A DNA stretch of 47,055 nucleotides from Candidatus Fervidifonticultor quintus. Its GTDB lineage: Bacteria; Sysuimicrobiota; Sysuimicrobiia; Sysuimicrobiales; Humicultoraceae. Positions within the stretch are counted from its first letter, which is position 1; every line of letters starts with the position of its first letter. A model generated the notes under the pieces. That model worked only from the letters and a program-made list of their open reading frames with translations. It did no database searches and was not told the origin of the DNA. Shown in pieces: positions 11,653 to 29,008 of this stretch. The position numbers and the translations under genes were made by a program. The DNA lies in the NCBI GenBank assembly GCA_031459535.1, contig JAVKIJ010000014.1, positions 1 to 47,055 on the forward strand, in the 5' to 3' direction.

Positions 11653-12828
11653 TCATCCTGCCACAAACAGCCCGGTGAGGTACATCACGAGCAGTCCGAC
11701 CACAAAGCCCGCGAAGTTGCTCGCGGTCACCAGCTCATCGCCCGCCTGACGGACCATCAGCCGGACCAGCTCGTAGGCCACCTGGAAGATAGCACCGGCG
11801 CCGATCGCCAGGAAGAGCGTCGCAAAGACCGGCGAATAGACGAAGCCGCCCAGCCAGGTGCCGAGGATGGTGGGCAGGCCAGCGAGCGCGCCGAGCTGGA
11901 CGAACCGCGCCAGCGGCGGCCGGTCGGGAGCCAGGGGGGCAGCGATCCCCAGGCCCTCGGTCGTGTTGTGGATCAGGAACCCCAGCACCAGGAAGGTGCC
12001 GAGTGCCACCTCGCCCAGCGCGTAGGCCGCGCCGATCGCCAGCCCCTCACCCAGGTTGTGCAGGCCGATGGCCAGGGCCACCAGTGTCGCCAGGACGAGA
12101 CGGGCCTGCGGTCCATCCAGCTTTCCACGGGTCGCCCGGCGAGTGACGACCACGAGCGCCAGGATCGTGCCCAGCACACCCACCGTGACCAGGCCGGTCC
12201 CCTGGAACGCGCCGGGCACCCGGTCGCGCACCTCCAGGGCCTCGGCCAGGGTGTCCAGCCCGAGGAAAACCAGCAGCCCGCCGGTGAGGCTCAGGAAGAA
12301 ACTCAGCCAGCGCCGGCCGATGCGCTGGAGGAAGGGAAACCACAGCAGACCGATCATGACGGGGACGACCCCCGCGTAGACGCCGATCATGGTGAACGCC
12401 AGCAGAGACCGCCCATCGGGCTTCGGGGTCTGCACCGCCACCGGGACCTCGTGCTCGATGACGACCCCGCTGCTCGTCAGCAGCTTGATCCGGTGGGGTT
12501 CGCCTGCCATCCAGGGATATGGAATGGTCACAGTGGCGCGGCCCAGGCGCGGGATGGTCCGATCGGGCTCGACGGTGTGCTGCCAGTAGGCGTCGTCCAC
12601 CAGCACCTGGGCCACCGTGACCGCAGACGGGCCACCGTTGGTCAGGGAGACGACCATCTGGCCCGGCCGCAGGGTCACCCGGTCGACCGTCAGCTGCTCG
12701 ACCGGTGGGAAGGCGGCCTCGAAGATTCCCAGGGGTCCGTAGGCCAGGAACAGCGCCACAAACACCGCCAGCAGCGCCAGCGGTCCCAGGCCCCACAGCG
12801 CCAGTCGCCGGGTCTCAGACCGCACCAT
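11653..12828 (-). CDS. ZIP-family metal transporter with an extra N-terminal soluble domain
   Basis: GLHNLGEG and IHNTTEG ZIP motifs; N-terminal TM followed by a beta-rich segment of about 95 aa. Confidence 0.88.
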   Translation of the reverse strand: MVRSETRRLALWGLGPLALLAVFVALFLAYGPLGIFEAAFPPVEQLTVDRVTLRPGQMVVSLTNGGPSAVTVAQVLVDDAYWQHTVEPDRTIPRLGRATVTIPYPWMAGEPHRIKLLTSSGVVIEHEVPVAVQTPKPDGRSLLAFTMIGVYAGVVPVMIGLLWFPFLQRIGRRWLSFFLSLTGGLLVFLGLDTLAEALEVRDRVPGAFQGTGLVTVGVLGTILALVVVTRRATRGKLDGPQARLVLATLVALAIGLHNLGEGLAIGAAYALGEVALGTFLVLGFLIHNTTEGLGIAAPLAPDRPPLARFVQLGALAGLPTILGTWLGGFVYSPVFATLFLAIGAGAIFQVAYELVRLMVRQAGDELVTASNFAGFVVGLLVMYLTGLFVAG

Positions 12829-13870
12829 CGGCAATGACCTCGAAGAAGCTCATCCAGCCCAGTTCGACGAACTCGCTCTGGTGCGCGTGGAACATGAACC
12901 GCCCCGGCCGCCTGTACCGGAATTCGAGGACCGCTCGCTCGGCCTGGCAGAGCATGATCGTGTCGGTGAAGTGCGCAGGCACCAGGCGCGTGCCGGTGGG
13001 GTAGACATCGAAGAAGTTGGCGTGCAGGTGGAAGGAGTTGATCGGATCGAACTCGGTAATGTTGACTAGATAGATGCGCACCAGCTCGCCCTGCCTGATG
13101 CGGATGGGATGACGCATGTAGAAGAACGGCACCGAGTTGACCGCGTAGACCTCGTTCTCCCCGTCGAAGTCGGTATCGAAGGCGTTCATCATCATCACCA
13201 GCTCCCGCGCCGGCGGCCGGCCCTGAGGCGGATCAATGATGAACGTGCCGTAAAGCCCCTTGTGGATGTGCCGTTTGAGCGGCTGCACGTGACAGTGGTA
13301 CAGGTGCAGCCCGAAGGGCTCGGCGTCGAACTCGTAGGAGAACGACCCGCCCGGCGCAATGGGATCGATGCCGTCCATCTCGGCGGCGTGGAAGCCGTGG
13401 AAGTGGATGTTGTGGGGGTGCGGCGCCCCGTTGACAAAGTGGACGCGGAGCCGGTCGCCCTCCCGTGCCCGGAGCGTGGGGCCGGGGACCTGCCCGTTGT
13501 ACGTCCAGGCCACAAATGTCACGCCAGGCGCCACCTCGATCTCGCGGACCTGGGCGACGAGACGGTACTCGCGCAGCATCCGCCCGCCGGGCAGCGGCGT
13601 GGCCTTGCCCCAGTCGAACCGGGTCAGGTAGCGCATCGGGTCCACGCCGGCCCGCCGGATGTCCACCTCACCCACCACGCCCAGGTCGCCGCCATGGGGA
13701 ACCGCGCCCCCGGGCGCGTTCGGGTCGGGGGCATGTCGTTCCCGGGTCTGCGGTTGGTGCCGTGGGCTGCCCGCGGCCGGCCCTCCGCCCGCCAGCGCCT
13801 TCGCCGCCAGGCCGGCGGCACTAACAGCAGCCAGGCGGAACAGGCCGCGGCGCGATACGGGTCCACTCAT
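12815..13870 (-). CDS. Tat-exported two-domain multicopper oxidase
   Basis: SRRGLF twin-arginine signal; NGQVPGP; HNIHFHG, YHCH..H, FHLH, FHAH copper motifs; GGAGG RBS. Confidence 0.9.
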   Translation of the reverse strand: MSGPVSRRGLFRLAAVSAAGLAAKALAGGGPAAGSPRHQPQTRERHAPDPNAPGGAVPHGGDLGVVGEVDIRRAGVDPMRYLTRFDWGKATPLPGGRMLREYRLVAQVREIEVAPGVTFVAWTYNGQVPGPTLRAREGDRLRVHFVNGAPHPHNIHFHGFHAAEMDGIDPIAPGGSFSYEFDAEPFGLHLYHCHVQPLKRHIHKGLYGTFIIDPPQGRPPARELVMMMNAFDTDFDGENEVYAVNSVPFFYMRHPIRIRQGELVRIYLVNITEFDPINSFHLHANFFDVYPTGTRLVPAHFTDTIMLCQAERAVLEFRYRRPGRFMFHAHQSEFVELGWMSFFEVIADGAV

Positions 13871-13972: not shown

Positions 13973-16111
13973 CTACTCGGGAGGCTCGATGCGAACCGGC
14001 ACGTTGATGTCGGCGTAGCGCAGCGTCATATAGTGGGTCGGCTCGAGCATCAGTAGCCGGCTCACCATGTACCGGTGCAGCCCGACCCAGGCGGCGAAAC
14101 GCGCGCCTCCGTCCGGCGAGGTCCAGAACAGCACACGGCAGGGCTCACCGTCACACCACCCGGTGCGCCCCAGCCTGATCCCCCGCGCCCCACGCAGGAA
14201 GTATAGCGGGCCCTCGACTGGCGTCGGCGAAGAGAACTCGTAGCGCTTCCAGGCGCCGCCGCTTGCGCGTTGATATCGCACGCGGCCCAGCGATACGACC
14301 TGCACGCCCGTCGAGGTCGAGAAGCGCTGCCGGTCTGGCCGCTCGGCCTCCAGCCACGTCAGGTAGGCGTTGCCCGCGCCGTCGGTGAGTTGCTGGATCT
14401 CACGCCACGTGCGCACCGACGCCCACGCTTCCCTGACCCGCTCCAGCAGGCGGAGGGCGTCGGGGCCGGCGATGGGCCTGCACTCTTCCCCCAGGTGCAA
14501 GGGGAAGATCGTCTCTGCATCCGCCCGGCCTGGCCAACGGACGAACACGCTGACCTCCCACCAGCCCGGGGGGCCCAACTCCGCGCCTCCGGCGGCGAAC
14601 TGGCCCTCGCCCAGAGCGGACAGCACCACGGTGGTCGGTTCTGTCGGCTCGTCCAGGTTCACAAACCGCACCAGCACACGCCCAGGTGTGGGGACGGACC
14701 CTCCGTTCCCATTCAGGACGCGCACCTCCACGCGGTTCCAGCCAGGCTCCGCCGGCGCGATCGAGAGCAGAATCCGCAGGGCATCTGCCTGTCCCGACAG
14801 CAGCACAGCGGCCCCCGCGCGGGGCGGGGCAGGCGGCGTGAGCGTGAGAACCGCCACGACCAGTCCGATCACCGCACCCGCGCACACCTCGGCGGTTCCC
14901 AGACCAAGGAACCGCCGTAGCGCGACCGTCGGCACTGCGGCGGTGCTGGCGATCCACCCGCGGACTCCCAAGCGGCCGATGACCGCCATCGCCACCAGCA
15001 CGACGACCAGGACCGTCTTGAGCGTTAGCGTCCTGCCGTAGGCTGAATCGGCCAGGGCCTGCATGCCGGCCACATGGAGCTTGGCGCCGTATGCGCCGGT
15101 GGTGACGACCAATCCCACACAGACAGCGGTGATCGCGGAGAGCCGCGGCGCCAGCCCACGGATGATGCGGGCGCGCCCTGACGGCGGCGTGGCCCAGGCG
15201 ATCATCAGGGAGCCGGCCACGCCGCCGATCCAGACGGCGACCGCCAGCAGATGCACCCAGTCCACCGCCATGGCCAGCCAGCCGCGCCCGGACCCGTGGG
15301 ACCCGAGCGTGACTCCGGCCAGGGCTCCAGCGGAGGCCAGTACCGAGGTCAACTGGGCGGCCGGCCAGGTTCGCCCTGCGCCGCGCGAGACCGTCGCCCA
15401 CAGGGCGACCACAGCCAGGCCTGCCCGACTCACGATGTGCCAGCCCGCCTTGGTCCTCACCAGGAACGGCCACAGAGCGCCGGTGGCGAGGGCGTCCCGG
15501 AGCGGCACCTCGAACAGCAGGGCCGACCCGACGAGCAGATCGGCGACGGCGGCCAGGAAGAGCACGGACGCCGCGCCCATCTGGGCGCGGCGGATCACCG
15601 TTGGCCCTGGCACCGGCGACCAGATCTCGAACGCGACCAATCCCGCCAGCAGCAACGCCGCCAGCAACCCCATCCACCGCACGGCCACCCGGGCCGGGCC
15701 AGGGACGTCCCCCGCCACAGTCCGGACAGATGCGGTCAGCGGCTGGCCCACCGAGAAGGCCAGCGCGCCGCTTGTGATGTGACCGTCCGAGAGAGCCAGC
15801 ACCCTCCACCGCACCGTGTAGATCCCGCGGGGAAGAGCCTCGAGGGCGACCGCCAGCGCGCGGCCGCCGTCTGTGATCTCCGCGCGGCGGCCGTAGCGGC
15901 GGCCTTCGCCGCTCGTGACCACGGCGGTGCTGAAGGCCGGATCGACGGGCTCGCTGAACCACAGCACGATCCGGTCCGGCGCGCGATCGAGCACGGCGTT
16001 GGCCGGAGGGGTCGAGCGTTCGAGAACCCCATGGGCACCGACCGGCACAGCGGACGCGGCCCACAGGCCGAGCGTGAGCAAGACGATGGGAAGAAGACCG
16101 CGAGCGCGCAT
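13973..16111 (-). CDS. CopC-CopD fusion with C-terminal Ig-like (YtkA/FixH-like) and LolA/LppX-like domains, copy 1
   Basis: Signal peptide then HGVLERSTP..DGH (CopC); GSH, DWVHLLAVAVWIGG, YGRTL.LK (CopD); PAEPGWN, PGWWEV. The C-terminal fold assignments are inference. Confidence 0.8.
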   Translation of the reverse strand: MRARGLLPIVLLTLGLWAASAVPVGAHGVLERSTPPANAVLDRAPDRIVLWFSEPVDPAFSTAVVTSGEGRRYGRRAEITDGGRALAVALEALPRGIYTVRWRVLALSDGHITSGALAFSVGQPLTASVRTVAGDVPGPARVAVRWMGLLAALLLAGLVAFEIWSPVPGPTVIRRAQMGAASVLFLAAVADLLVGSALLFEVPLRDALATGALWPFLVRTKAGWHIVSRAGLAVVALWATVSRGAGRTWPAAQLTSVLASAGALAGVTLGSHGSGRGWLAMAVDWVHLLAVAVWIGGVAGSLMIAWATPPSGRARIIRGLAPRLSAITAVCVGLVVTTGAYGAKLHVAGMQALADSAYGRTLTLKTVLVVVLVAMAVIGRLGVRGWIASTAAVPTVALRRFLGLGTAEVCAGAVIGLVVAVLTLTPPAPPRAGAAVLLSGQADALRILLSIAPAEPGWNRVEVRVLNGNGGSVPTPGRVLVRFVNLDEPTEPTTVVLSALGEGQFAAGGAELGPPGWWEVSVFVRWPGRADAETIFPLHLGEECRPIAGPDALRLLERVREAWASVRTWREIQQLTDGAGNAYLTWLEAERPDRQRFSTSTGVQVVSLGRVRYQRASGGAWKRYEFSSPTPVEGPLYFLRGARGIRLGRTGWCDGEPCRVLFWTSPDGGARFAAWVGLHRYMVSRLLMLEPTHYMTLRYADINVPVRIEPPE

Positions 16112-16143
16112 TCTGGCCCCACCCGCGCGGAACGTCCGCAACC

Positions 16144-16152
16144 ATGATAGCA
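16144..16152 (-). promoter_or_regulatory. Extended -10 element TGcTATCAT upstream of copCD copy 1
   Basis: Minus-strand TGCTATCAT about 33 nt before ATG 16111. Confidence 0.45.
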
Positions 16153-16220
16153 GGATGCCAGCCATCGGATGCGAGGCCGGCGCAGGATGCGCGTCGGCGG
16201 GCTGTGCGCTATCGGGCGTC

Positions 16221-16837
<617 letters not shown>

Positions 16838-16838
<1 letters not shown>

Positions 16839-17083
16839 CTGTCCGTAACCGACTCGCCCAGGTGGAAGGCCACGTGCACAGTATCCGCACCATGGTGGCT
16901 GACGGGCGGCCGTGCCCGGAGATCTTGATCCAGATTGCGGCGGCGCGCAGCGCCCTCGACCAGGCGGCGCGCGTACTGCTCGAGGATCACCTCGAGCACT
17001 GTGTGGTAGAAGCCAAGACGCGGGGCAACGTGGCCGCGGCGGTGGCTGATCTCAAAGAGGCCCTCGACCGGTTCATCCGATGA
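16838..17083 (+). pseudogene. csoR: CsoR/RcnR-family metal-sensing repressor lacking its 5' end
   Basis: NRLAQVEGH..CPEILIQIAA..EDHLEHC (C-H-C metal site); no start codon or RBS between it and the antisense ATPase fragment. Confidence 0.8.
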
Positions 17084-19212: not shown

Positions 19213-19983
19213 ATGCCCGTGCGGGAGCTCATCCAGGCCTGGTACGGGTTCCTGAGCACCGGCTACGCCGCAGCGCAAGGGATCGTTGGCGGCCAGACCT
19301 CCGACCCGAACGGCACGCTGCTGACAGCGCTGCTGCTGGGCGTGCTCGGCGCCGCCAGCCCATGCCAGCTCAGCACGAACGCCTCGTCGATCGCGTACAT
19401 CGTGCGGGCAGCCGGTGACCGCCGCGCGCCAGTCGGGTGGTCGGCGGTGGCCTATGCCGTGGGGAAGATCCTGGTGTATTCCGGCATCGGCGTGCTGGCC
19501 GCCCTGATGGGCGAAGGACTGCGGGCGTTGGCCATCCCGACCGTTGCGATTACGCGCAAGGCGATCGGACCGCTGATGATCCTGGTCGGCCTCGCGATGC
19601 TGGAGATCTGGCGGCCGCGCTTCTCGGTCGGACATGGGCTGAGCGCGCGTCTGCTCTCGCGCGCAACATCACGTGGGGCGTCGGGCGCCTTCTTGCTGGG
19701 CGTGGCGTTCGCGTTTGCTTTCTGTCCGACGCTCGCCGTCCTCTTCTTCGGCTATGTGCTTCCCATGGCGGTTGCCAGCAGGACGGCGCCCCTCTACCCG
19801 GCCGCATTTGCGTTAGGCACAATGCTACCGCTCTTCGTCACCACCATCTTGCTCGCGGCGGGCCTGGACGGCACAGGAATCGCCCGGCGCCTTCCGTATT
19901 GGGAGCCACGAATCCGTCGCATCGCTGGGGTCGTCTTCCTGCTCGCCGGGCTCAACGATACGCTGCTGTACTGGTTCCTCTGA
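19213..19983 (+). CDS. DsbD_2/CcdA-like (TauE/SafE-annotated) membrane protein with two Cys motifs
   Basis: SPCQLSTN and FAFCPT in a protein of about 6 TM segments. Confidence 0.75.
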   Translation: MPVRELIQAWYGFLSTGYAAAQGIVGGQTSDPNGTLLTALLLGVLGAASPCQLSTNASSIAYIVRAAGDRRAPVGWSAVAYAVGKILVYSGIGVLAALMGEGLRALAIPTVAITRKAIGPLMILVGLAMLEIWRPRFSVGHGLSARLLSRATSRGASGAFLLGVAFAFAFCPTLAVLFFGYVLPMAVASRTAPLYPAAFALGTMLPLFVTTILLAAGLDGTGIARRLPYWEPRIRRIAGVVFLLAGLNDTLLYWFL

Positions 19984-20119: not shown

Positions 20120-20608
20120 ATGCCCATACATATCTCCAAGACCGCGGAAGCGCGGCGCAGTGAGCTCCGCCGGAAGACGCTGCGACGAAGATTCGCCCTC
20201 GGCGCCTTTATGGTCGGAGCGTTGGTTGTGCTCGGCGTCTCGGCTTCGCTGGTCGTCAAACCCTTGCGCGCACACCACGAGCCGGCGCAGGCGCCGGCCG
20301 CAACGGGCAAGCAATACCGGATCGTGGTGACCATGGCCGGATGCGATCCCTCGGTGCTGCGCGTTAGAGCCGGTGAGCCGTTCACCGTGCATCTGTTGAA
20401 TCCCGACAGCCGGTTCCATACCGACGGTGGGGGATGGCACCAGTTTCACATCGAGACCCTGGGGATAGACGTTCGCATCCCACCCCAATCCGAACGCAGC
20501 CAGACCTTCGCAGGTCTTGCACCCGGCACGTACGAGTTCTACTGCGACGTCTGCTGCGGTGGCAAGGAGAACCCCACGATGCGCGGGGTGATCGAGGTCA
20601 CCGGGTGA
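20120..20608 (+). CDS. Membrane-anchored cupredoxin-domain protein
   Basis: N-terminal TM; WHQF, PGTYEFYCDVCCGGKENPTMRGVIEV; GGAGG RBS. Confidence 0.85.
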   Translation: MPIHISKTAEARRSELRRKTLRRRFALGAFMVGALVVLGVSASLVVKPLRAHHEPAQAPAATGKQYRIVVTMAGCDPSVLRVRAGEPFTVHLLNPDSRFHTDGGGWHQFHIETLGIDVRIPPQSERSQTFAGLAPGTYEFYCDVCCGGKENPTMRGVIEVTG

Positions 20609-21288
20609 GCGCGCTGACGCTGCCCGCGGTGCTGACCGGCGGCCTGATAGACGGCCTGAACCCTTGTGCGTTCAGCGTCTTACTGTCGTTCGTTGCCCTG
20701 ATCCTGACCAGTGTGGCGCTAACCAGCGATCCCCGGCCTCACCTCTGGCGGGCGGGCGCGACATACATCGCGGGAATGTTCCTCACGTACCTGCTGCTTG
20801 GGCTCGGGGTCATCGCCGCCGTGTCATTCTTCACCAACACCCACCTACCAATCCGCCTGATGGGATTCGCCGTCGTGGTCACGGGCCTGTGGGCGCCCAA
20901 GGATGTCGTCTTGCCCGGCGTGGGGGTTCCGCTGGCGATGCCCGGTCGCTGGCATGGCGCGGTGCCTCAGGCGCTCTCCCGAACCACTCTCGTCGGACTC
21001 TTTACTGCGGGGGCGCTGATAGGGCTGTGCGCGCTGCCCTGCAGCGGCGCGATCTACCTGGGCGTGCTGGCGCTGATCGCCAGGGAACCACTGCCCGCCC
21101 GGCTGGGCTATGTCATGCTCTACAACATCATGTTTGTCGCACCGCTGGTCGTGCTCCTGGCGACGGTGGCCAGCCGGCGGGTGCTCAATCGCGTTGCGCA
21201 CGCCTACCTGCAGCGCAAGGCACTGGCCAAAGCTGCGGTCGGCGCGGTCACGGTGCTGCTGGGTCTTGCTATCCTGATCACGGCCTGA
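20605..21288 (+). CDS. CcdA/DsbD-transmembrane-like thiol-exchange protein
   Basis: DGLNPCAF and LCALPCSGAIYL; GTGA overlap with the cupredoxin stop. Confidence 0.8.
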   Translation: MSALTLPAVLTGGLIDGLNPCAFSVLLSFVALILTSVALTSDPRPHLWRAGATYIAGMFLTYLLLGLGVIAAVSFFTNTHLPIRLMGFAVVVTGLWAPKDVVLPGVGVPLAMPGRWHGAVPQALSRTTLVGLFTAGALIGLCALPCSGAIYLGVLALIAREPLPARLGYVMLYNIMFVAPLVVLLATVASRRVLNRVAHAYLQRKALAKAAVGAVTVLLGLAILITA

Positions 21289-21322: not shown

Positions 21323-21512
21323 ATGACAAGGGATCCTGTCTGTGGGATGAACGTCGACGACAAGGGCGCTGCCGGTTCGTCAGTCTATCACGGCAAGACC
21401 TATCAGTTCTGCTCCACAGGATGCAAGGCTGCCTTCGACGCGAACCCCGACCGCTACGTGGTCCCGTCGGCACAGAAGGGCCATGGGACCAGCGGTCACG
21501 GATCGGGCCATC
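21323..21512 (+). CDS. YHS-domain metal-binding protein whose stop codon appears lost
   Basis: DPVCGM..YHGKTYQFCSTGCKAAFDANPDRY, then a GH-rich tail running into antisense ATPase sequence (frame open to 21931). Confidence 0.75.
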
Positions 21513-21514
21513 CG

Positions 21515-23226
21515 GGAGGTGGCGTTGACCGCAACAATCGGCGAGCTGCCAGCCATCGAGAGCGCGGCGATTTCCGGCCGCAGGATCAGCCCGAACGGCT
21601 CGTAGAGCAGCCCAGCGGCAATCGGGAAGGCGATCGGGTTATAACCGGCGGCCCAGAACAGGTTCTCCTTCATCTTCCGAACGGTGGCCTGGCTCAGCCG
21701 GATGGCTTTGACTACGTCATAAGGATCGCTGCACATGAGCACGACATCTGCTGTCTCCATGGCCACATCGGTCCCCGCGCCTGCAGTTCTTTCACCTTGT
21801 CGGCCTTCTGCCCGGGCAACACATCGGCGAAAACCGTGTCCATCCCCAGTTCGCCCGCGACGCGCTCCGCGGTCGCGCGGTTGTCGCCGGTGAGCATCGC
21901 CACCTGCACGCCGTGCTGGCGTAGACGCTAGACTACGACCTTCGAGGTCTCGCGCACTGCGTCGGCGATGGCGATCAGCACAGCCAGCCGGCCGCCGCGA
22001 CGTGCACCACAGTGCGGCCCGCGCCCTCCAGCGCGGCCGCCCGTTCGCCCAGCCCGTCAAGACTGATACCGCGGTCACGCATGATCTTGCGGTTGCCCAC
22101 CACCACCTCATGACCATCCACGCGCGCCCGGGCGCGGCCGGGGATCGCCTCGAAGTCCGCGGCGTCGGGAATCGTCACGCCACTCGACCGCAGATGCGCC
22201 ACGATGGCCCGCGCCAGCGGGTGCTCGCTGCCCTGCTCGACAGCACCGGCCAGGCCAAGGATCCCGGCACCGTCGGCGGTGACGACCTCCACCACCTGTG
22301 GCTCACCCTTCGTTAGCGTGCAGGTCCTGTCGAAGACCACAGCGTGGATCTTGCTCGCCTGCTCCAGCGCGGCGGCGTTCTTGAACAGGATCCCGTTCAT
22401 CGCCCCAAGGCCGGTCCCGACCATGACGGCAGTTGGGGTCGCCAGACCCAGCGCGTCAGGGCAGGCGATGACGACCACGGTGATTGCCATCGTCAGCGCG
22501 AACACCAGCGAGGCGCCGGTCACGTAGTACCACCCGATGAAGGTGGCCAGGCCGAAGATGACGGCGGCCGCCACCAGCCACTGGGCCGCGGCATCAGCCA
22601 GTCGTTGCGCGGGCGCCTTGGAGTTCTGCGCCATCTGCACCAGCTTGACGATCTGCGCCAGGGCGGTGTCCGCGCCGACCTTCGTCGCCTTGAACCGAAA
22701 TACGCCGGTCTTGTTGATGGTGGCGCCGGTCACCACATCACCGGGCCGCTTCTTCACCGGCAGGCTCTCGCCAGTGATCATGGACTCGTCGACGTCGCTT
22801 TCACCCTCGATCACCTCGCCGTCCACGGGGATCTTGTCGCCGGGACGTACCACTACCGTGTCACTCGTCAGCACGTCGGCCGTAGACACCTCGACCTCCC
22901 GGCCATCCCGAATGACGCGGGCCTTCGGTGGGGCGAGATCGAGCAACGCACGGATCGCCTGCGAGGCGCCGGCCCGCGCGCGCATCTCCATCCAGTGGCC
23001 GAACAGGATGAAGGTGGCCAGCACGGCCGCGGCTTCGTAGAAGACCTCGCTTTCAAAGAGGAATGTGGCGCCGACGCTGAACAGATAGCCAGCACCCACG
23101 CTGAGGGCCACCAGGACCGCTATGTTGACCGTGCGCTGGCGCAGGGCCTGGACCGCCCCGATCAGGAACGGCCAGGTGCTGTAGAAGACGACCGGCGTCG
23201 TCAGGAGGAAGAGCAGGAGACTGATG
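21515..23226 (-). pseudogene. Degraded copper-type P1B ATPase
   Basis: [19 protein letters not shown] in place of DKTGT, SEHPL, frameshift near 21995, TAG at 21930-21928, GDGVND block deleted, YN..P and MAGSS; N-terminus missing. Confidence 0.9.
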
Positions 23227-23297
23227 CAGGGCGGTGAAATCTCTGCCGAAACCCGCCGGGAGGGCGGGGCCCGCTTCACCGTCAGGCTGCCCTCATC

Positions 23298-23318
23298 TTA
23301 ACAAGGCTTTAACAAGGC
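23298..23318 (+). promoter_or_regulatory. Tandem direct repeat TTAACAAGGC twice (OmpR/PhoB-type box)
   Basis: Exact 10-bp repeats at 11-bp period, upstream of TACAAT (23334-23339). Confidence 0.65.
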
Positions 23319-23379
23319 CGGCGATCATCCGTGTACAATGCGACGGCAGAATTTCGAACACGCTCGCCGAAGGAGCAGC

Positions 23380-23790
23380 ATGCGCACCCAGTTCCTTGCG
23401 CGCACGGGCACCGTGCTCGTCGTCTCGGCCGTCATCGCAGGATGCGGCGTCCCCAGCGCCTCGACGCCTCGGCCACAGCCATCGCCGGAGCAGGATCGGG
23501 CCCTCCAAACCGTGACCGTCGTGATGCGGGAGTTCGAGTTCGAGCCGAAGCCGTTGAAGGCTAGAGCGGGCATGGTGCGGTTCGTGCTCATGAACCGCGG
23601 GAGCGTAGACCACGACTTCGCGATCCCGAATCTGGCGGAGCACGGCAACCACGAGCAGCACCTGGTGCCGCCGGGGAAGACACGGACCGTTGACCTGGAA
23701 CTGAAACCGGGAACCTACGAGGCGGTCTGCACCGTTCCAGGCCACCAGAACGCCGGGATGTGGGTGACGGTTGAGGTCGGTTCCCAGTGA
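23380..23790 (+). CDS. Type-1 (blue) copper cupredoxin lipoprotein
   Basis: Lipobox-like IAGC; HDF and CTVPGHQNAGM (H..C-x4-H-x4-M); AGGAG RBS. Confidence 0.88.
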   Translation: MRTQFLARTGTVLVVSAVIAGCGVPSASTPRPQPSPEQDRALQTVTVVMREFEFEPKPLKARAGMVRFVLMNRGSVDHDFAIPNLAEHGNHEQHLVPPGKTRTVDLELKPGTYEAVCTVPGHQNAGMWVTVEVGSQ

Positions 23791-23814
23791 AGCGGCGTGT
23801 CTCGAAGCTCTACA

Positions 23815-24435
23815 CTACCGCGCCCCCGTCACGAGCCGCAGGATCTCTACGATCTGCGGCCCATGACTGCCGAAGTCGATATCCACCCGCTGCACCCGAA
23901 TGATCCCCTCCCGATCCATGACCACGAAGCCGACCAGCCCCCGCATCGGCCGGCCCTCGCCTGGCAGCTCGTACATCCTGGCCACCGTGTAGCCCGGATC
24001 CAGCAGGATCGGGATGCTGAGCCGCGAGGCCTCGCGCACCTTGCGGTTGTTCTCCACCGTGTCGGGATTGATCACATAGACGTCGGCCAGGGCCCGAATC
24101 GCCGCCGCGTGCCGCTCCAGCTCGCCGAGCTGGACCACGCAACGCGGTCAGTAGTAGCCCATGTGCGAGATGAGGACCAGCGGCCGCCCGGTGCCGCCCG
24201 GCGTCACCTGGTAGATGCGCCCGTCGCCATCGCGGAGCGCGAACGCCGGGCCCTTCTTGCCCAGCAGGGTGTTGACGTCCACGGCAATCTCCGGACCGCC
24301 GATGGGACCGGGGATGGCGGCTTGCGGCGGACGAGCGGCTCCCGCCGCGTACCAGGCACCCGCTGCCGCCACTACGAGTGCTGAGAGAGGCACCCATCGC
24401 GTCCACCGTCGTCGCTGTCCCCTGGCCCTGCCCAT
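23815..24435 (-). CDS. Membrane-anchored AhpC/TSA-like thioredoxin-fold selenoprotein (UxxC), 206 aa
   Basis: ORFs 24148-24612 and 23815-24138 share one frame, joined by TGA 24150-24148: PAFALRDGDG..GRPLVLISHMGYY-U-PRCVVQLGEL..INPD..ILLDPG..VARMY..VMDREGII; GGAGG RBS before ATG 24435. Confidence 0.85.
24116..24134 (-). promoter_or_regulatory. Candidate bacterial SECIS hairpin
   Basis: UCCAGCUC-GGC-GAGCUGGA, a perfect 8-bp stem starting 13 nt after the UGA, with a G-starting apical loop. Confidence 0.65.
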
Positions 24436-24494
24436 TGTCGTCCTCCTGCGTCCTGCCTGCGACTTTCCCCGTGTGTTCGGTGCCGCGGTCCGGC

Positions 24495-26885
24495 TCACCT
24501 GGGTCGTTCGATCCGGATCGCGGCGTTGAAGTCGCCCACGCGGGCCGTCATGTAGTGCCGGGGTGCCACCATGAGCACTTTGTGGATCCGCCGCGTTGCC
24601 TCGCCGATCCATCCGGCGAACGCCGCGGCGCCGTCGGGCGCGTCCCAGAGCACCACGCGGCAGGGCTCCTCACCGCACGGCCCCCGGCGTCCGAGGCGCA
24701 CGGACCTGGCGCCTCGCAGGTACTGGAGGACGCCTTCGACAGCCACGGGGCGCGCGAGTTCGTCGTGCCGCCAGGGGGCCGCGCCCTCGCGGAGGTACCG
24801 GGACGGTCCAATAAAGACGACCTCGGCACCGCTCGAGGTCCGAACGTACATACGATCGGGAGGGAGCAGGTCAACGGATGCGATGAGCAGACCGCCGGCA
24901 CCGTCGGTGATCTGCTCAACCTCCCGCCACGCGCGCAGCGCGGCCATCGCCTCCCCCGCCCCTTCGAGAAGGCGAAGGGCGGCGGGGTCGGTCGCAACCT
25001 GCTGCGCGGGGACGAGACGCAGAGGAAACGACGTGACGAGATCGAGCTGACCTCGCCGCCGCAGGATGACCTCGATCTCCCACCATCCCGGTGGCAGGGT
25101 CACGCGGCGTGCGGTGTCCCGTCCGCCCCCCGCAGCGAGCAGCGTCAGCGTGGTGGGGGTCACGTCCTCGTCGAGCTTGATCAGGCGGGCCAGCACGCGG
25201 GATTCACCACTGGACGGCTCACCACCCGTGCGGGCGACCGTCACATCGACCTGGTTCGGTCCCGGCTGTGCTGGCGCCACCACCAGCTCGATCCGCGCCT
25301 CTCCGGCGCTCCCGAGGTAGCGCAGCGCGGACGGCGCGGGTCGGGTGGCGAGGACCACGCGTGCTGGCGGCGTCGCCGCCAGCAGCGCCGCGACGAACAA
25401 CACCACCGCAGCCACACCCACCTCGGCGCCGGCCAGCCGGAGGAACTGCGCGGCCCCCGCAGCGGCACCATCGTCTGACATCACCCCGCCGCGCACCGGA
25501 ACGGCCTGCAGGCGGCGCCGCACGACGAACCGGTTGACGGCGCCGAGCGCGACCAGCGGTACGACGAAGACGAGCTTCGCGGACAGGAAACGGCCGTACT
25601 GGGTGAGGGCCAGTGCCCGCAGGCCTGGCATGTGCAGCCAGATGCCGTAGAGGCCGGTGGTGACCACGACGCCGAGACAGATCGCGGCGAGGCGGGAGAA
25701 CCGCGGCAGGAGGACGGAGGCCAAGCGCTTCCGGTCGTCGCCGCGGCTGGCCAGCACGATCAGCACCAGGCACGCCAGGCCGCCCAGCCACGACGCGTTC
25801 GCCAAGAGGTGCGCCCAGTCCACCACCGCAGCCAGCGGACCGCTCCCCCACGCATGCGAGTTCACCGTGAGCCCAAAGAGCATGATGGCGGCGACGAGCG
25901 GAGGCACGATCGCCAGATCGGGCAGCCGCAGGTCCCGGATCTGAGGCAAGATGATCGCCGCCATCACGCTGGCCAGCCCGTACACTGCGCCTACCAGCAC
26001 CAGCAGAGCCAGATGCGTGCTACCAGCAAGCCCCGAGGGACCGCCCAACAGCGTGAAGACCCCGCCCACCAGTACGAGCCAAGCGAGCCCGGCGGCCTGC
26101 AGGATCCGTCCGGAGGCGGTACGGGGCAACAGCAGCAGGGCGGCCGCGACCGCCCGCACCAGCGCGCTCCAACCCGGTTTCGTCCCCCACACCATCTGGG
26201 CGAGCAGGCCGCTGGCGGCAACCTGCCCCAGCGTCGCGCCGGTGAGGCTCGCGGCGCCCACCACCACCTCGAGTGCGGCCGCACCGATCACCACCCCACA
26301 CCCCGCGGCGGTCACCACACGGATCGGGCGCGCGGCGCGCTCGTGCAGCGCGCCTGCCCCGACCGGCTCCACCTCTCGCAGCGCGGGCGCGAGGATGCGG
26401 GGCCCAAACAGCGAGGCGCCGGCCACGAGCAGCGCGGCGGCCAGCCCGACCCATCGAATGGCGGCCGCGGCGAGGTCCGGCCCCTGGGTCCCGCCAAACC
26501 CCTCCGGTGGCCGGGCTCCGAGTCCCACGGTGAACGCGAAGACTCCACTGGTCGCATGACCGTCAACCGAGGACAGCACACGCCACCGGACCGTGTAGAA
26601 CCCCTTGGGTATCTGCCGCAGCGGCGCGGTGACCCGCCGCCCGTCCTCGGACACCGCCGCGCGCTCTGAGACGAGGGCACCGGCGGGATCGGTCACGGTC
26701 ACGCTGCTGAACGCGGGATCCACCGGCTCGTTGAACCACAGCTCGATCTGGCCGGGGGGTGCGTCGAGCGCGGCGTTGGGCGCAGGAGAGGAGCGCTCGA
26801 CCACGCTGTGGCCGAACGCCGGCGCACAGGCAGCGATCCAGAGACCGAGGATCAGCGCGAGGGGGACCAGCGGTCGCCGCACCAC
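24495..26885 (-). CDS. CopC-CopD fusion with C-terminal Ig-like and LolA/LppX-like domains, copy 2
   Basis: HSVVERSSP..DGH; NSHAW, DWAHLLA..WLGG, YGRFL..K; PAQPGPN; PGWWEI; paralogous to 13973-16111. Confidence 0.82.
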   Translation of the reverse strand: MVRRPLVPLALILGLWIAACAPAFGHSVVERSSPAPNAALDAPPGQIELWFNEPVDPAFSSVTVTDPAGALVSERAAVSEDGRRVTAPLRQIPKGFYTVRWRVLSSVDGHATSGVFAFTVGLGARPPEGFGGTQGPDLAAAAIRWVGLAAALLVAGASLFGPRILAPALREVEPVGAGALHERAARPIRVVTAAGCGVVIGAAALEVVVGAASLTGATLGQVAASGLLAQMVWGTKPGWSALVRAVAAALLLLPRTASGRILQAAGLAWLVLVGGVFTLLGGPSGLAGSTHLALLVLVGAVYGLASVMAAIILPQIRDLRLPDLAIVPPLVAAIMLFGLTVNSHAWGSGPLAAVVDWAHLLANASWLGGLACLVLIVLASRGDDRKRLASVLLPRFSRLAAICLGVVVTTGLYGIWLHMPGLRALALTQYGRFLSAKLVFVVPLVALGAVNRFVVRRRLQAVPVRGGVMSDDGAAAGAAQFLRLAGAEVGVAAVVLFVAALLAATPPARVVLATRPAPSALRYLGSAGEARIELVVAPAQPGPNQVDVTVARTGGEPSSGESRVLARLIKLDEDVTPTTLTLLAAGGGRDTARRVTLPPGWWEIEVILRRRGQLDLVTSFPLRLVPAQQVATDPAALRLLEGAGEAMAALRAWREVEQITDGAGGLLIASVDLLPPDRMYVRTSSGAEVVFIGPSRYLREGAAPWRHDELARPVAVEGVLQYLRGARSVRLGRRGPCGEEPCRVVLWDAPDGAAAFAGWIGEATRRIHKVLMVAPRHYMTARVGDFNAAIRIERPR

Positions 26886-26889
26886 CGCC

Positions 26890-27282
26890 TCAGCGGCTCA
26901 CGACGAACCAGAACGTGCCGGCCGCCAGGTACCCGTCGTCGGCCGAGACCGCTCGCCACCGGACGGTGTACCTGCCGGGTCCGATGGGGCGCAACCGAGC
27001 CACCAGCGTCTTCCGGTCCAGATCGTCGAGGTCCACGCCCCCCTGACCATCGTCCACCCGGCGGCCGCGGCCATCGACGACCGTGATCGCGCTGAGCTTG
27101 GGCGCCAGTTCGTCGTTGAATGTCGCCCGTACCACTCGTGGCGGCACCTTGACCACGCTCCCGGGGGCGGGGGAAGCGCGCAGCAGCTTCGCGTGCGCGG
27201 CGGAGGTGCCAACCAGGGCGCCCACGATGAGGCTCACCGCCGCGGCGACCACGAGGCCACCGGTCAGGCGTTCCGTCATCAC
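26890..27282 (-). CDS. copC: CopC-family periplasmic copper-binding protein
   Basis: Signal peptide SAA-HAKLLRASP, G.YTVRWRAVSADDG; GGAGG RBS. Confidence 0.85.
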   Translation of the reverse strand: MMTERLTGGLVVAAAVSLIVGALVGTSAAHAKLLRASPAPGSVVKVPPRVVRATFNDELAPKLSAITVVDGRGRRVDDGQGGVDLDDLDRKTLVARLRPIGPGRYTVRWRAVSADDGYLAAGTFWFVVSR

Positions 27283-27295
27283 GCCCGTCCCTCCA

Positions 27296-29008
27296 TCATG
27301 ACTTGGGGGGCTGCACGACAGCGGCGCGCAGCCGTTCCTCCAAACGCGCCAGTCCCCAGGCGGCATTCCGGCCCACGTGCACCTTGAGCACCCGGCGACC
27401 CCGCTGCAACAACGCCCGCAGGTCTCCCAGAGCCTGCGCGCGGATCAGCGCGCCGAAGGTGTAGGGACTGTCAGGGACGGGCAAGTCGTCCGGCGGCTCG
27501 TCGACACACTGCAGGAAGATACCGGTCGGGGGTCCGCCCTTGTGCAGTTGACCCGTTGAGTGCAGGAAGCGCGGACCGTATCCCAGGGTGGTCGCGACGC
27601 CGTACGTGGCGGCGATCAGCGTCCGAATCCGCGCAAACGCCCCCGCGGTCTCGTCCGTCGGCGCCAGATACGCCTGGATGCCGATGTAGTCCCCAGGCTT
27701 CACCTGCTGGAGCCACGCTTGCAGCGCATCGTCGAGCGCCCAGGTGTGCTCGGCCGGAATCCCCACCTCCAGGGCGTCCACGTGCGCAGCCTGCCCGGTC
27801 GAGGGGGCCGCGCGCTGCGCCACGGCCTGCGCCGCCAGGTCCTTGGCGAGCTGCACATCGGGTTGGTCAAACGGCTGAATCCCCAGCGCCGCCCCGGCCG
27901 CGGCCGTGGCGACCTCCCACCGGAAGAACTCGGCGCCCAGGTCGGCCTTCTGCGCCAGCTCGATGCGGATGACGGGATGGCCAGCGGCCTCGAGGCGGGC
28001 CAGGGCGGCATCCAGCGGCCGGGAGGGCTCGCCGGCGAGCTGGATAGAGACGAAGACACGATCGTCACCGTAGGTCTCTGCGGGCGCCAGCGGCTCATCA
28101 CAGATAGGGACGATACCCCTGCCGTCCTTCCCCGTGCTCTCGGCGATCAGTTGCTCGACCCACCAGGGCAGCGCGGTCAGCGACGGCGACGTGAAGAAGG
28201 TCAGCTTGTCGCGGCCCGCCAGGGCCAGCTCGCCCAGGGACGCACCCAGCGCGAGGCCGGGGTTGTCGGGGGCTGCGGCGGTGCAGGCCCGGGCCATCGT
28301 GACAGCCGCTCGAGCGAGGGGCTCGAGATCCACGCCGATCAGGACCGCCGGCACCAGGCCGAACACCGAGAGAGCCGAGTACCGCCCGCCCACGTCAGGC
28401 GGCGCCAGGAAGACCCGTCGGAACCCGTGCTGCTCCGCCAGGCGCGACAGCGGGGTCCCAGGATCGGTAATCGCCACGAAGTGCTCCCCCGGCGTCGCGT
28501 TCGCCGCGGCCACCGCCCGCCAGAAATGACGGAAGAAGGACAACGTCTCGGTGGTCGTGCCGGACTTGCTGGAGACCAGGAAGAGGGTGCGGCGCAGGTC
28601 GAGCCGGGCTTCCACCACGCGCACAGCCGCCGGGTGCGTGCTGTCCAGCACGATCAGCTCGGGATGTCCCGACCCGTGGCCGAACGTGCGTTGAAAGACC
28701 TCCGGCGCCAGGCTCGAGCCTCCCATCCCCAGCAGCACCACGTGGCGCGCGCCCTCGGCCTGTACTTCTTGGGCGAAGGTCCGAAGGTCGCCGACCGCGC
28801 CGGGCATCGCCCCGGGCAGATCCAGCCATCCCAGACGATCGGCCAACCCGGGCACAGGCACCGGCGACCAGAGCGTGTAGTCCTTCGCCCACAGGCGCCG
28901 CGCGAAGTCTGCCCGGCACCAGGCACGCAGCCTCGCGTCGATCCGCGCCCTGATGGCAGGATCGGCGGAGAGGGCGTACCAGGGGATACCGGAGGAGTCG
29001 ACACTCAT
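27296..29008 (-). CDS. pgi: Glucose-6-phosphate isomerase (Tal-Pgi-type PGI domain, standalone)
   Basis: RLGWL, GMGGSSL, SSKSGTTTE, VGGRYSALS, EQLIAESTGK, PFDQPDV, HSTGQLHKGG; ATGA overlap with the CDF stop. Confidence 0.88.
   Translation of the reverse strand: MSVDSSGIPWYALSADPAIRARIDARLRAWCRADFARRLWAKDYTLWSPVPVPGLADRLGWLDLPGAMPGAVGDLRTFAQEVQAEGARHVVLLGMGGSSLAPEVFQRTFGHGSGHPELIVLDSTHPAAVRVVEARLDLRRTLFLVSSKSGTTTETLSFFRHFWRAVAAANATPGEHFVAITDPGTPLSRLAEQHGFRRVFLAPPDVGGRYSALSVFGLVPAVLIGVDLEPLARAAVTMARACTAAAPDNPGLALGASLGELALAGRDKLTFFTSPSLTALPWWVEQLIAESTGKDGRGIVPICDEPLAPAETYGDDRVFVSIQLAGEPSRPLDAALARLEAAGHPVIRIELAQKADLGAEFFRWEVATAAAGAALGIQPFDQPDVQLAKDLAAQAVAQRAAPSTGQAAHVDALEVGIPAEHTWALDDALQAWLQQVKPGDYIGIQAYLAPTDETAGAFARIRTLIAATYGVATTLGYGPRFLHSTGQLHKGGPPTGIFLQCVDEPPDDLPVPDSPYTFGALIRAQALGDLRALLQRGRRVLKVHVGRNAAWGLARLEERLRAAVVQPPKS

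Follow-up and report, generated by a model that had tools for sequence, protein, structure and literature searches.

Results

The interrupted gene and its features

We analysed a 47,055-nucleotide (nt) stretch of DNA from Candidatus Fervidifonticultor quintus (assembly GCA_031459535.1, contig JAVKIJ010000014.1, positions 1 to 47,055), which is hereafter called the window. The gene under study lies on its minus strand and encodes a predicted membrane-anchored, peroxiredoxin-like (Prx-like) oxidoreductase. Its reading frame is interrupted by a single TGA codon, the proposed site of selenocysteine (Sec, U) insertion in a UxxC motif, and a candidate selenocysteine insertion sequence (SECIS) follows this codon. 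The gene has the following features, in which L001 and L002 are two relatives described below.

23815..24435, minus strand: whole gene for the proposed membrane-anchored Prx-like UxxC (seleno)protein, 206 codons plus stop with the TGA read through
24441..24447, minus strand: Shine-Dalgarno-like AGGAGGA, 5 nt ahead of the ATG, from direct sequence reading
24337..24396, minus strand: hydrophobic segment, predicted signal anchor, codons 14–33, from hydropathy and a modelled helix
23893..24261, minus strand: AhpC/TSA (thioredoxin-fold) catalytic domain, codons 59–181, from Pfam, an AlphaFold2 model and a structure search
24148..24150, minus strand: in-frame TGA, codon 96, proposed Sec codon at the first position of UxxC, from frame translation
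24139..24141, minus strand: Cys99 (TGC), putative resolving partner in UxxC, aligned with the peroxidatic Cys of peroxiredoxins
24116..24134, minus strand: core hairpin, candidate apical part of a bacterial SECIS, 8 perfect pairs and the loop GGC, kept in three genes
24105..24147, minus strand: extended stem-loop around the core hairpin, a predicted fold whose lower stem is kept in L001 and weak in L002

The frame opens with ATG at 24435-24433 and ends with TAG at 23817-23815. Its sole internal stop is the TGA of codon 96, which stands in the peptide context GYY-U-PRC. The initial annotation, drawn from the DNA letters, had joined two separately called open reading frames into this one frame, broken by TGA at the first position of a CxxC motif, and both of the residues that it named, U96 and C99, are present in the sequence. 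The N-terminal half is recorded in databases as a protein of 95 amino acids (aa; P0153), and the C-terminal half of the window gene itself was not seen among the matches listed. TGA terminates 21 of the 35 domain-supported genes of the window. Because it remains the usual stop there, recoding at codon 96 would be local.

Conservation of the TGA codon in relatives

A scan of a genome collection returned 239 pattern matches, which yielded three relatives (L001, L002, and L003). L001, from a metagenome-assembled genome (MAG) of Armatimonadota, is 75% identical to the window protein, and L002, from an unclassified bacterial MAG, is 63% identical. Both carry TGA at the equivalent of codon 96 (GYY-U-PPC and GYY-U-QRC, respectively), and in both the protein is conserved on either side of the TGA despite numerous synonymous differences. 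The third relative (28% identity) is a TlpA-like protein with Cys in place of U.

An exhaustive protein search over 1.84 billion cluster representatives gave 668 matches at E ≤ 1e-3. The best 150 of these were sorted as follows.

N-terminal pieces whose last residue directly precedes codon 96, all with the ending [H/N]-M-G-x-x: 34
C-terminal pieces starting 2–15 residues past codon 96: 11
Sequences covering codon 96: 97 (Cys 91, Thr 4, Arg 1, Phe 1)
Other class: 8

Neither Trp nor Gly occurs at the codon-96 position in any of the 97 covering homologues from these best 150 matches. In an alignment of 72 sequences, in which the TGA of the window, L001 and L002 genes was written as C, the codon-96 column holds Cys in 67, and Cys99 is invariant (72/72). 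It had been foreseen that recoding would be in doubt if the genome lacked Sec machinery and close relatives all had TGC or TGT at this codon, or if homologues had Trp or another non-Cys residue. Neither turned out to be the case, as TGA stands in both of the two close loci and Cys in 91 of the 97 covering homologues, with Thr, Arg and Phe making up the rest.

A word-indexed protein search found no full-length relative of 113–361 aa among 3753 candidates. It returned 72 short relatives, namely 9 N-terminal halves, 62 C-terminal halves, and 1 other. All nine N-terminal halves end in SHMG[YF][YF], and one of them is the 95-aa call from the window itself. Those short relatives that bear a name are annotated as ‘peroxiredoxin’ or ‘redoxin domain-containing protein [Armatimonadota bacterium]’. 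A tblastn search of a plasmid collection gave 27 records, all below 60% identity and annotated as peroxiredoxin-like, and this search revealed no copper context. Cys in distant homologues together with truncated calls for close ones is the usual footprint of a selenoprotein family in the databases.

The hairpin downstream of the TGA

The hairpin UCCAGCUC-GGC-GAGCUGGA begins 13 nt past the UGA and occupies 24134-24116, where the initial annotation had reported a perfect 8-bp stem with a G-starting loop. The 3-nt loop opens with G and begins 21 nt past the UGA, and more pairing lies beneath the core stem. All three genes (window, L001 and L002) have the same seven inner pairs and the same GGC loop. 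The 48 nt from the UGA fold with −30.0 kcal/mol in the window (z −3.01; 3 of 200 shuffles as good) and with −26.3 kcal/mol in L001 (z −3.11).

Codon usage was compared over codons 97–112 and over the remainder of the gene. Within codons 97–112, identical residues are encoded by identical codons at 12/13, 10/12 and 11/11 positions in the three gene pairs, against 68/129, 55/112 and 42/99 in the remainder (one-sided Fisher p = 0.0047, 0.023, and 0.00018). This conservation of synonymous sites points to a constraint on the RNA besides that on the protein.

All TGA triplets of the window were also scanned for SECIS-like hairpins, which were defined by a perfect stem of at least 8 bp and an apical loop of 3–14 nt that starts 16–37 nt past the UGA and has a G at its first or second position. 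The geometric limits follow the bSECISearch model. Such a hairpin follows 10 of the 961 triplets, the TGA of codon 96 included. A G at position 1 or 2 of the apical loop is a hallmark of the bacterial SECIS (PMC13582414, PMC1088965); here and below, statements from the literature follow the available excerpts of the cited articles.

Domain, fold and active site

A single Pfam match to AhpC-TSA (PF00578) covers residues 59–181 (E 3.8e-15, 56.4 bits against a cut-off of 26). The match crosses codon 96, in agreement with the earlier observation of an AhpC/TSA-like fold on both sides of the TGA. Pfam Redoxin also matches (E 4.5e-07). The AlphaFold2 model has a mean predicted local distance difference test score (pLDDT) of 88.6 and a predicted template modelling score (pTM) of 0.77. 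In this model, U96 immediately precedes a helix of residues 97–107, as in thioredoxin-fold redox proteins. The closest solved folds are Bcp-type peroxiredoxins (3drn, E 8.7e-11, TM-score 0.82 by the target's length), and ResA (2h1b, TM-score 0.83) and CcmG are also among the matches. Profile and sequence searches of solved structures agree with these structural matches. No Pfam match to SCO1/SenC was obtained for the window protein at E ≤ 0.1. The best NCBIfam match, a SelL-related redox protein, reaches 22 bits against a cut-off of 120; therefore, no NCBIfam model covers the protein.

The active-site motif of peroxiredoxins is PxxxT/SxxC. When the window protein was aligned with an archaeal peroxiredoxin, U96 fell on Thr, C99 on the peroxidatic Cys, and Met92 on Pro. 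Val168 is aligned with the catalytic Arg, and an Arg sits three residues earlier. Among the 72 aligned sequences, the catalytic-Arg column contains 24 His, 23 Pro and 6 Arg. Because Met replaces Pro, Sec would replace Thr, and Val is aligned with Arg, the protein is not a canonical peroxiredoxin. A cis-Pro loop opposite the active site is a feature of the TlpA/ResA/CcmG type; the corresponding column has Pro in 23 of the 72 relatives and Val in the window protein.

Membrane anchor and subfamily signature

The N-terminus has six Arg or Lys and no Asp or Glu among residues 1–14 and continues into a hydrophobic stretch, as had been noticed from the sequence at the outset. The top 17-residue hydropathy window begins at residue 15, and the AlphaFold2 model contains a helix over residues 8–33. 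An N-terminal anchor is thus predicted, with the catalytic domain outside the cytoplasm. Of 28 Sec-type N-terminal pieces with an extension of at least 25 aa, 27 combine a basic tail with a hydrophobic 17-mer; therefore, the anchor appears to be general across the family. The N-terminus of L002 differs and resembles a cleavable signal peptide.

The residues ahead of the proposed Sec are also distinctive. Sec-type pieces have Met-Gly at positions −4/−3 in 34/34 cases, and His (30/34) or Asn (4/34) at −5. The same columns of the 72 aligned, mostly Cys-type sequences hold His in 5 and Met in 9. The signature of the subfamily is His-Met-Gly-x-x-U.

The copper neighbourhood

Three neighbouring genes bear on the possible role of the protein.

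24495..26885, minus strand: CopC-CopD fusion, directly upstream of the UxxC gene with a 59-nt gap (Pfam CopC 2.7e-24, CopD 6.2e-21)
26890..27366, minus strand: stand-alone CopC, first gene of the run (Pfam CopC 2.3e-16)
19213..19983, plus strand: DsbD_2/CcdA-like membrane protein with two Cys in hydrophobic stretches, candidate electron supplier (Pfam DsbD_2 5.8e-19)

The gene order PGI-like, copC, copC-copD, UxxC gene is common to the window and L001. In L001, the UxxC gene lies 27 nt behind copCD on the same strand, and the CopC-CopD fusion protein is 57% identical to its L001 counterpart. The CopC-CopD fusion and the UxxC gene are probably in the same operon. A scan of 23300-27600 for promoters and terminators gave two terminator-like sites (shuffles average 1.1), neither of which lies between copCD and the UxxC gene. 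The fusion protein carries a CxxxxC pair at residues 737–742, which is kept in L001. This pair lies in a C-terminal domain of about 290 residues that has no Pfam family in the window protein and a weak YtkA-like match in the L001 copy.

The window constitutes a copper island. It contains a CsoR-type repressor, two cupredoxins, a YHS protein, two CopC-CopD fusions, a stand-alone CopC, a multicopper oxidase, and two DsbD_2-like proteins. The CsoR/RcnR-type metal-sensing repressor (16778-17083, plus strand; PF02583, E 2.3e-24) is located at the edge of the copper cluster. One cupredoxin gene (23338-23790, plus strand) is convergent with the UxxC gene, with 24 nt between the stop codons; its product combines a lipobox-like IAGC with ligands in the pattern C..H..M. 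The other (20120-20608) is flanked by the two DsbD_2-like genes, the second of which (20434-21288, plus strand) likewise encodes two Cys in hydrophobic stretches. The second CopC-CopD fusion (13973-16165, minus strand) adjoins the two-domain multicopper oxidase (12815-13870, minus strand), and beyond this pair lie a ZIP-like transporter and a DtxR-type regulator.

The P-type ATPase genes of the island are incomplete. A P1B-type ATPase gene (21380-23279, minus strand) looks decayed, with frame changes near 21978 and 21790, an internal stop, and the stretch ahead of the GTDVA motif missing. A long antisense open reading frame (21323-21931, plus strand) with a YHS domain at its start overlaps its 3′ end. 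Of a second P-type ATPase, the window contains no more than the C-terminal third (16221-16829, minus strand; Hydrolase profile positions 91–191), and no N-terminal part was found upstream of it. We considered that a single P-type ATPase might have been split by a 5-kb insertion and rejected this, as the N-terminal part can be followed across the frame changes up to a C-terminus of its own.

The YHS domain recurs in relatives of the UxxC protein. It is fused N-terminally to AhpC-TSA in 2 of the 26 longer relatives (P0057 and P0101). A gene for a YHS-nitroreductase fusion stands directly behind the L001 orthologue (L001 10592-11380).

Discussion

Probable recoding of the UGA codon

It is highly probable that 23815..24435 is one UGA-recoded oxidoreductase gene. 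The initial annotation had described its product as an exported or anchored UxxC oxidoreductase with an AhpC/TSA fold, and the TGA in relatives and the Cys in homologues lend this description support. A broken gene, whether by nonsense mutation, by sequencing error, or by a true split into proteins of 95 and about 100 aa, would fit the separate calls that gene callers make for the two halves. Two P-type ATPase genes of the same island are visibly decayed, and no Sec gene is among the scanned genes of the window, the rest of the genome being outside the analysis. Nevertheless, a break is very unlikely. Two independent MAG relatives (75% and 63%), in which both halves are conserved, share the TGA at this codon, the best 150 cluster representatives include 34 whose end coincides with this residue, and a conserved hairpin follows the codon. 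Moreover, the break lies within one fold domain, at its catalytic Cys position, so that neither half could fold alone. A genome-wide reassignment of TGA to Trp or Gly has only the open frame itself in its favour and is close to negligible; it is refuted by the 21 of 35 domain-supported genes that end in TGA, and the covering homologues from the best 150 of 668 matches contain neither residue at the position.

If the codon is recoded, the inserted residue is likely Sec rather than Cys. The other possibility is that a SelC-like, Cys-charged tRNA (tRNA-ReC) decodes the UGA via SelB at the same hairpin, giving an ordinary CxxC oxidoreductase. Such tRNA-ReC-like tRNAs stand beside canonical SelC in 5/5 Armatimonadota genomes with UXXU-type hydrogenases, and the same study cites earlier work in which they read UGA as Cys if a SECIS follows (PMC13582414). 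L001, the closest relative, comes from an Armatimonadota MAG, and the homologues covering the position mostly have Cys (91/97). The reports from this phylum make Sec likely rather than certain. However, canonical SelC is present in those genomes and their UGA sites are treated as Sec (PMC13582414). At least three diverged genes, and apparently 34 clusters, have also retained a UGA with its hairpin, which would be costly if TGC would do. Insertion of Cys is accordingly quite unlikely. Armatimonadota MAGs that carry Sec genes have been reported (PMC13582414).

Several observations weigh against the recoding or against Sec as its outcome. At the DNA level, the evidence consists of two relatives; the 34 and 9 N-terminal pieces are known as protein, in which the stop codon is not seen. 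The 48-nt fold of L002 (−17.0 kcal/mol, z +0.18) is matched by 107 of 200 shuffles, and the 76-nt fold of the window has a z of only −1.42. None of the 18 predicted pairs shows a compensatory change among the three genes, and the outermost pair of the 8-bp stem is broken in L002. The conservation of the hairpin is partly at the protein level, since its invariant core encodes the conserved peptide QLGELE. An Rfam search of 23700-24600 at E ≤ 10 gave three chance-level matches and no SECIS family. Among the three sequences, the hairpin structure is thus conserved and plausible, but covariation does not prove it. The 47-kb window contains no tRNA at all, its scanned genes include no selA, selB or selD, and the examined parts of L001–L003 likewise contain no tRNA. 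A second in-frame-TGA candidate was not detected in the window with a filter that is insensitive, as it missed the codon-96 gene itself. The four matches of that scan were all ordinary boundaries between adjoining genes.

Proposed function and possible copper link

The recoded gene would give a protein of 206 residues, with a short Arg-rich cytoplasmic tail, one membrane helix, and an AhpC/TSA domain outside the cytoplasm. In the proposed mechanism, the UGA of codon 96 is not a stop; the stem-loop 13 nt downstream most likely recruits the SelB/tRNA-Sec pathway, and the Sec so inserted would be the residue that attacks in the redox pair U96-x-x-C99. Like TlpA/ResA, the protein may then work as a thiol(selenol):disulfide oxidoreductase on the outward-facing side of the membrane. 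Because the UxxC gene is the last of the copC/copC-copD run, with which it may be co-transcribed, its reducing power is most likely supplied to copper acquisition. One possible task would be to keep Cys ligands reduced, either those of the C-terminal CxxxxC of CopCD or the Cys of the neighbouring cupredoxins. Another would be the reduction of Cu(II) to Cu(I). The oxidoreductase itself might be re-reduced via the DsbD/CcdA-like membrane proteins that are encoded 3–5 kb away.

As the copC-copCD context holds in 2/3 loci, we can only infer a role in copper acquisition, and a copper-specific role is put forward tentatively. There is a real possibility, though short of an even chance, that the protein is a genuine selenoprotein that serves as a general redox or antioxidant enzyme of the envelope, in disulfide reduction or isomerisation or in peroxide removal, with no special tie to copper, its place beside copCD in this lineage being incidental. 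Copper genes are absent from the vicinity of L002 (63%), the synteny between L001 and the window reduces the two to one observation, and the closest solved folds are Bcp-type peroxiredoxins, with C99 aligned to their peroxidatic Cys. The literature presents the known Prx-like UxxC selenoproteins as redox proteins whose function is unknown (PMC1088965, PMC13188914). On the other hand, the UxxC gene follows copCD on the same strand after 59 nt in the window and 27 nt in L001, the window is dense in copper genes, and the metal-binding YHS domain is fused to AhpC-TSA in 2 of the 26 longer relatives. The peroxiredoxin motif is not retained (Met for Pro, Sec for Thr, Val at Arg). Furthermore, His-Met precedes Sec in 30/34 Sec-type pieces (Met in 34/34), against His in 5/72 and Met in 9/72 of the mostly Cys-type sequences.

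Further findings count against a function in copper uptake. The L002 orthologue (L002 1-6306) stands between a class-III aminotransferase gene and two DAO/GCV_T genes (sarcosine- or dimethylglycine-oxidase-like), and no copper gene occurs in the 11.4-kb contig region of L002 that was examined. L001 is not an independent case because it is syntenic with the window. Thus, the copC/copC-copD adjacency stressed in the initial annotation does exist and is shared by L001, but L002 does not share it. Mature CopC has no Cys. The decay of two nearby P-type ATPase genes suggests that parts of the island are not under selection. For the proposed electron donor at 19213-19983, the best NCBIfam match is an ArsG-type transporter, at 169 bits against a cut-off of 200. 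The scan of 23300-27600 found no promoter-like site and is uninformative on co-transcription.

A more specific form of the copper link would assign the signature H-M-G-x-x-U-x-x-C to the metal itself. His91, Met92, Sec96 and Cys99 might bind or reduce copper outside the cytoplasm and pass Cu(I) to CopC-CopD. We consider this unlikely. If true, selenium and copper would meet in one natural protein, which would also be the reductase so far missing from the route of CopCD uptake.

Significance

The gene is in all likelihood a genuine recoded selenoprotein gene that belongs to a known class and represents a widespread, membrane-anchored subfamily, with a copper context that is suggestive and unproven. 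Its kind was already known, as Prx-like selenoproteins with a UxxC motif were first described in 2004-2005 (PMC1088965, PMC2398784, PMC9312934, PMC13188914). For annotation, a sizeable group of envelope proteins is systematically halved in public gene calls, as the 72 short relatives illustrate. The recoded codon marks the end of at least 34 clusters (50% identity), and a dedicated model would restore the proteins. The protein would add an anchored, extracytoplasmic member to the UxxC Prx-like selenoproteins, and would extend Sec use in an Armatimonadota-like lineage beyond the recently reported hydrogenases (PMC13582414).

The copper link is weak, as it is present in 2/3 loci that amount to one lineage. 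None of the papers listed by our literature search mentions CopC, which is not proof that such a context is absent. The available excerpts of two selenoproteome reviews mention copper only for CopZ-like and SO_0444-type selenoproteins (PMC9312934, PMC13188914). If the link is true, selenium redox chemistry serves copper acquisition, and this would bear on how CopC-held Cu(II) is readied for CopD.

Comparison with known systems

The window protein shares with Sco/SenC an anchored, extracytoplasmic thioredoxin-fold protein encoded among copper genes. The motif of Sco/SenC is CxxxC plus a His. The window protein differs in its spacing, which is x-x and not x-x-x, and in having no SCO1/SenC Pfam match.

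Bcp/PrxQ and the TxxU Sec-peroxiredoxins provide the best structural matches (3drn), and C99 is found at the position of their peroxidatic Cys. However, Bcp/PrxQ have PxxxTxxC where the window protein has M-x-x-x-U-x-x-C, and its Sec would stand three residues ahead of the position that Sec has in Sec-peroxiredoxins (PMC1088965). With TlpA/ResA/CcmG, the shared features are the N-terminal anchor, an extracytoplasmic thioredoxin-fold domain, and an x-x redox pair at the start of a helix. These proteins have Cys and not Sec, the window protein has Val at the cis-Pro column, and its sequence is closer to Bcp-type peroxiredoxins than to theirs. As a precedent for an anchored reductase in the service of copper centres, TlpA is a membrane-anchored thioredoxin-like protein that reduces the cysteines of the CuA site and Sco (PMC9145763).

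The closest known group consists of the Prx-like thiol:disulfide oxidoreductase selenoproteins (PF00578, UxxC/UxxU), which have the same Pfam domain and the same UxxC motif as the window protein (PMC1088965, PMC2398784, PMC9312934, PMC13188914). The Sargasso Sea study named this class ‘Prx-like protein’; the Global Ocean Sampling (GOS) study, which counted 225 of its sequences, used the name ‘Prx-like 1’ (PMC2398784). In both the class and the window protein, Sec is placed at the thioredoxin-type attacking position and not in the TxxU of Sec-peroxiredoxins, and Cys homologues are abundant. Selenoprotein subfamilies are defined by domain and motif (PMC9312934); by these two properties, the predicted protein belongs to the Prx-like UxxC class. 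Within it, the subfamily of the window protein is set apart by its basic tail and membrane anchor and by the signature His-Met-Gly-x-x-U, and the window gene itself stands at the end of a probable copC-copCD operon.

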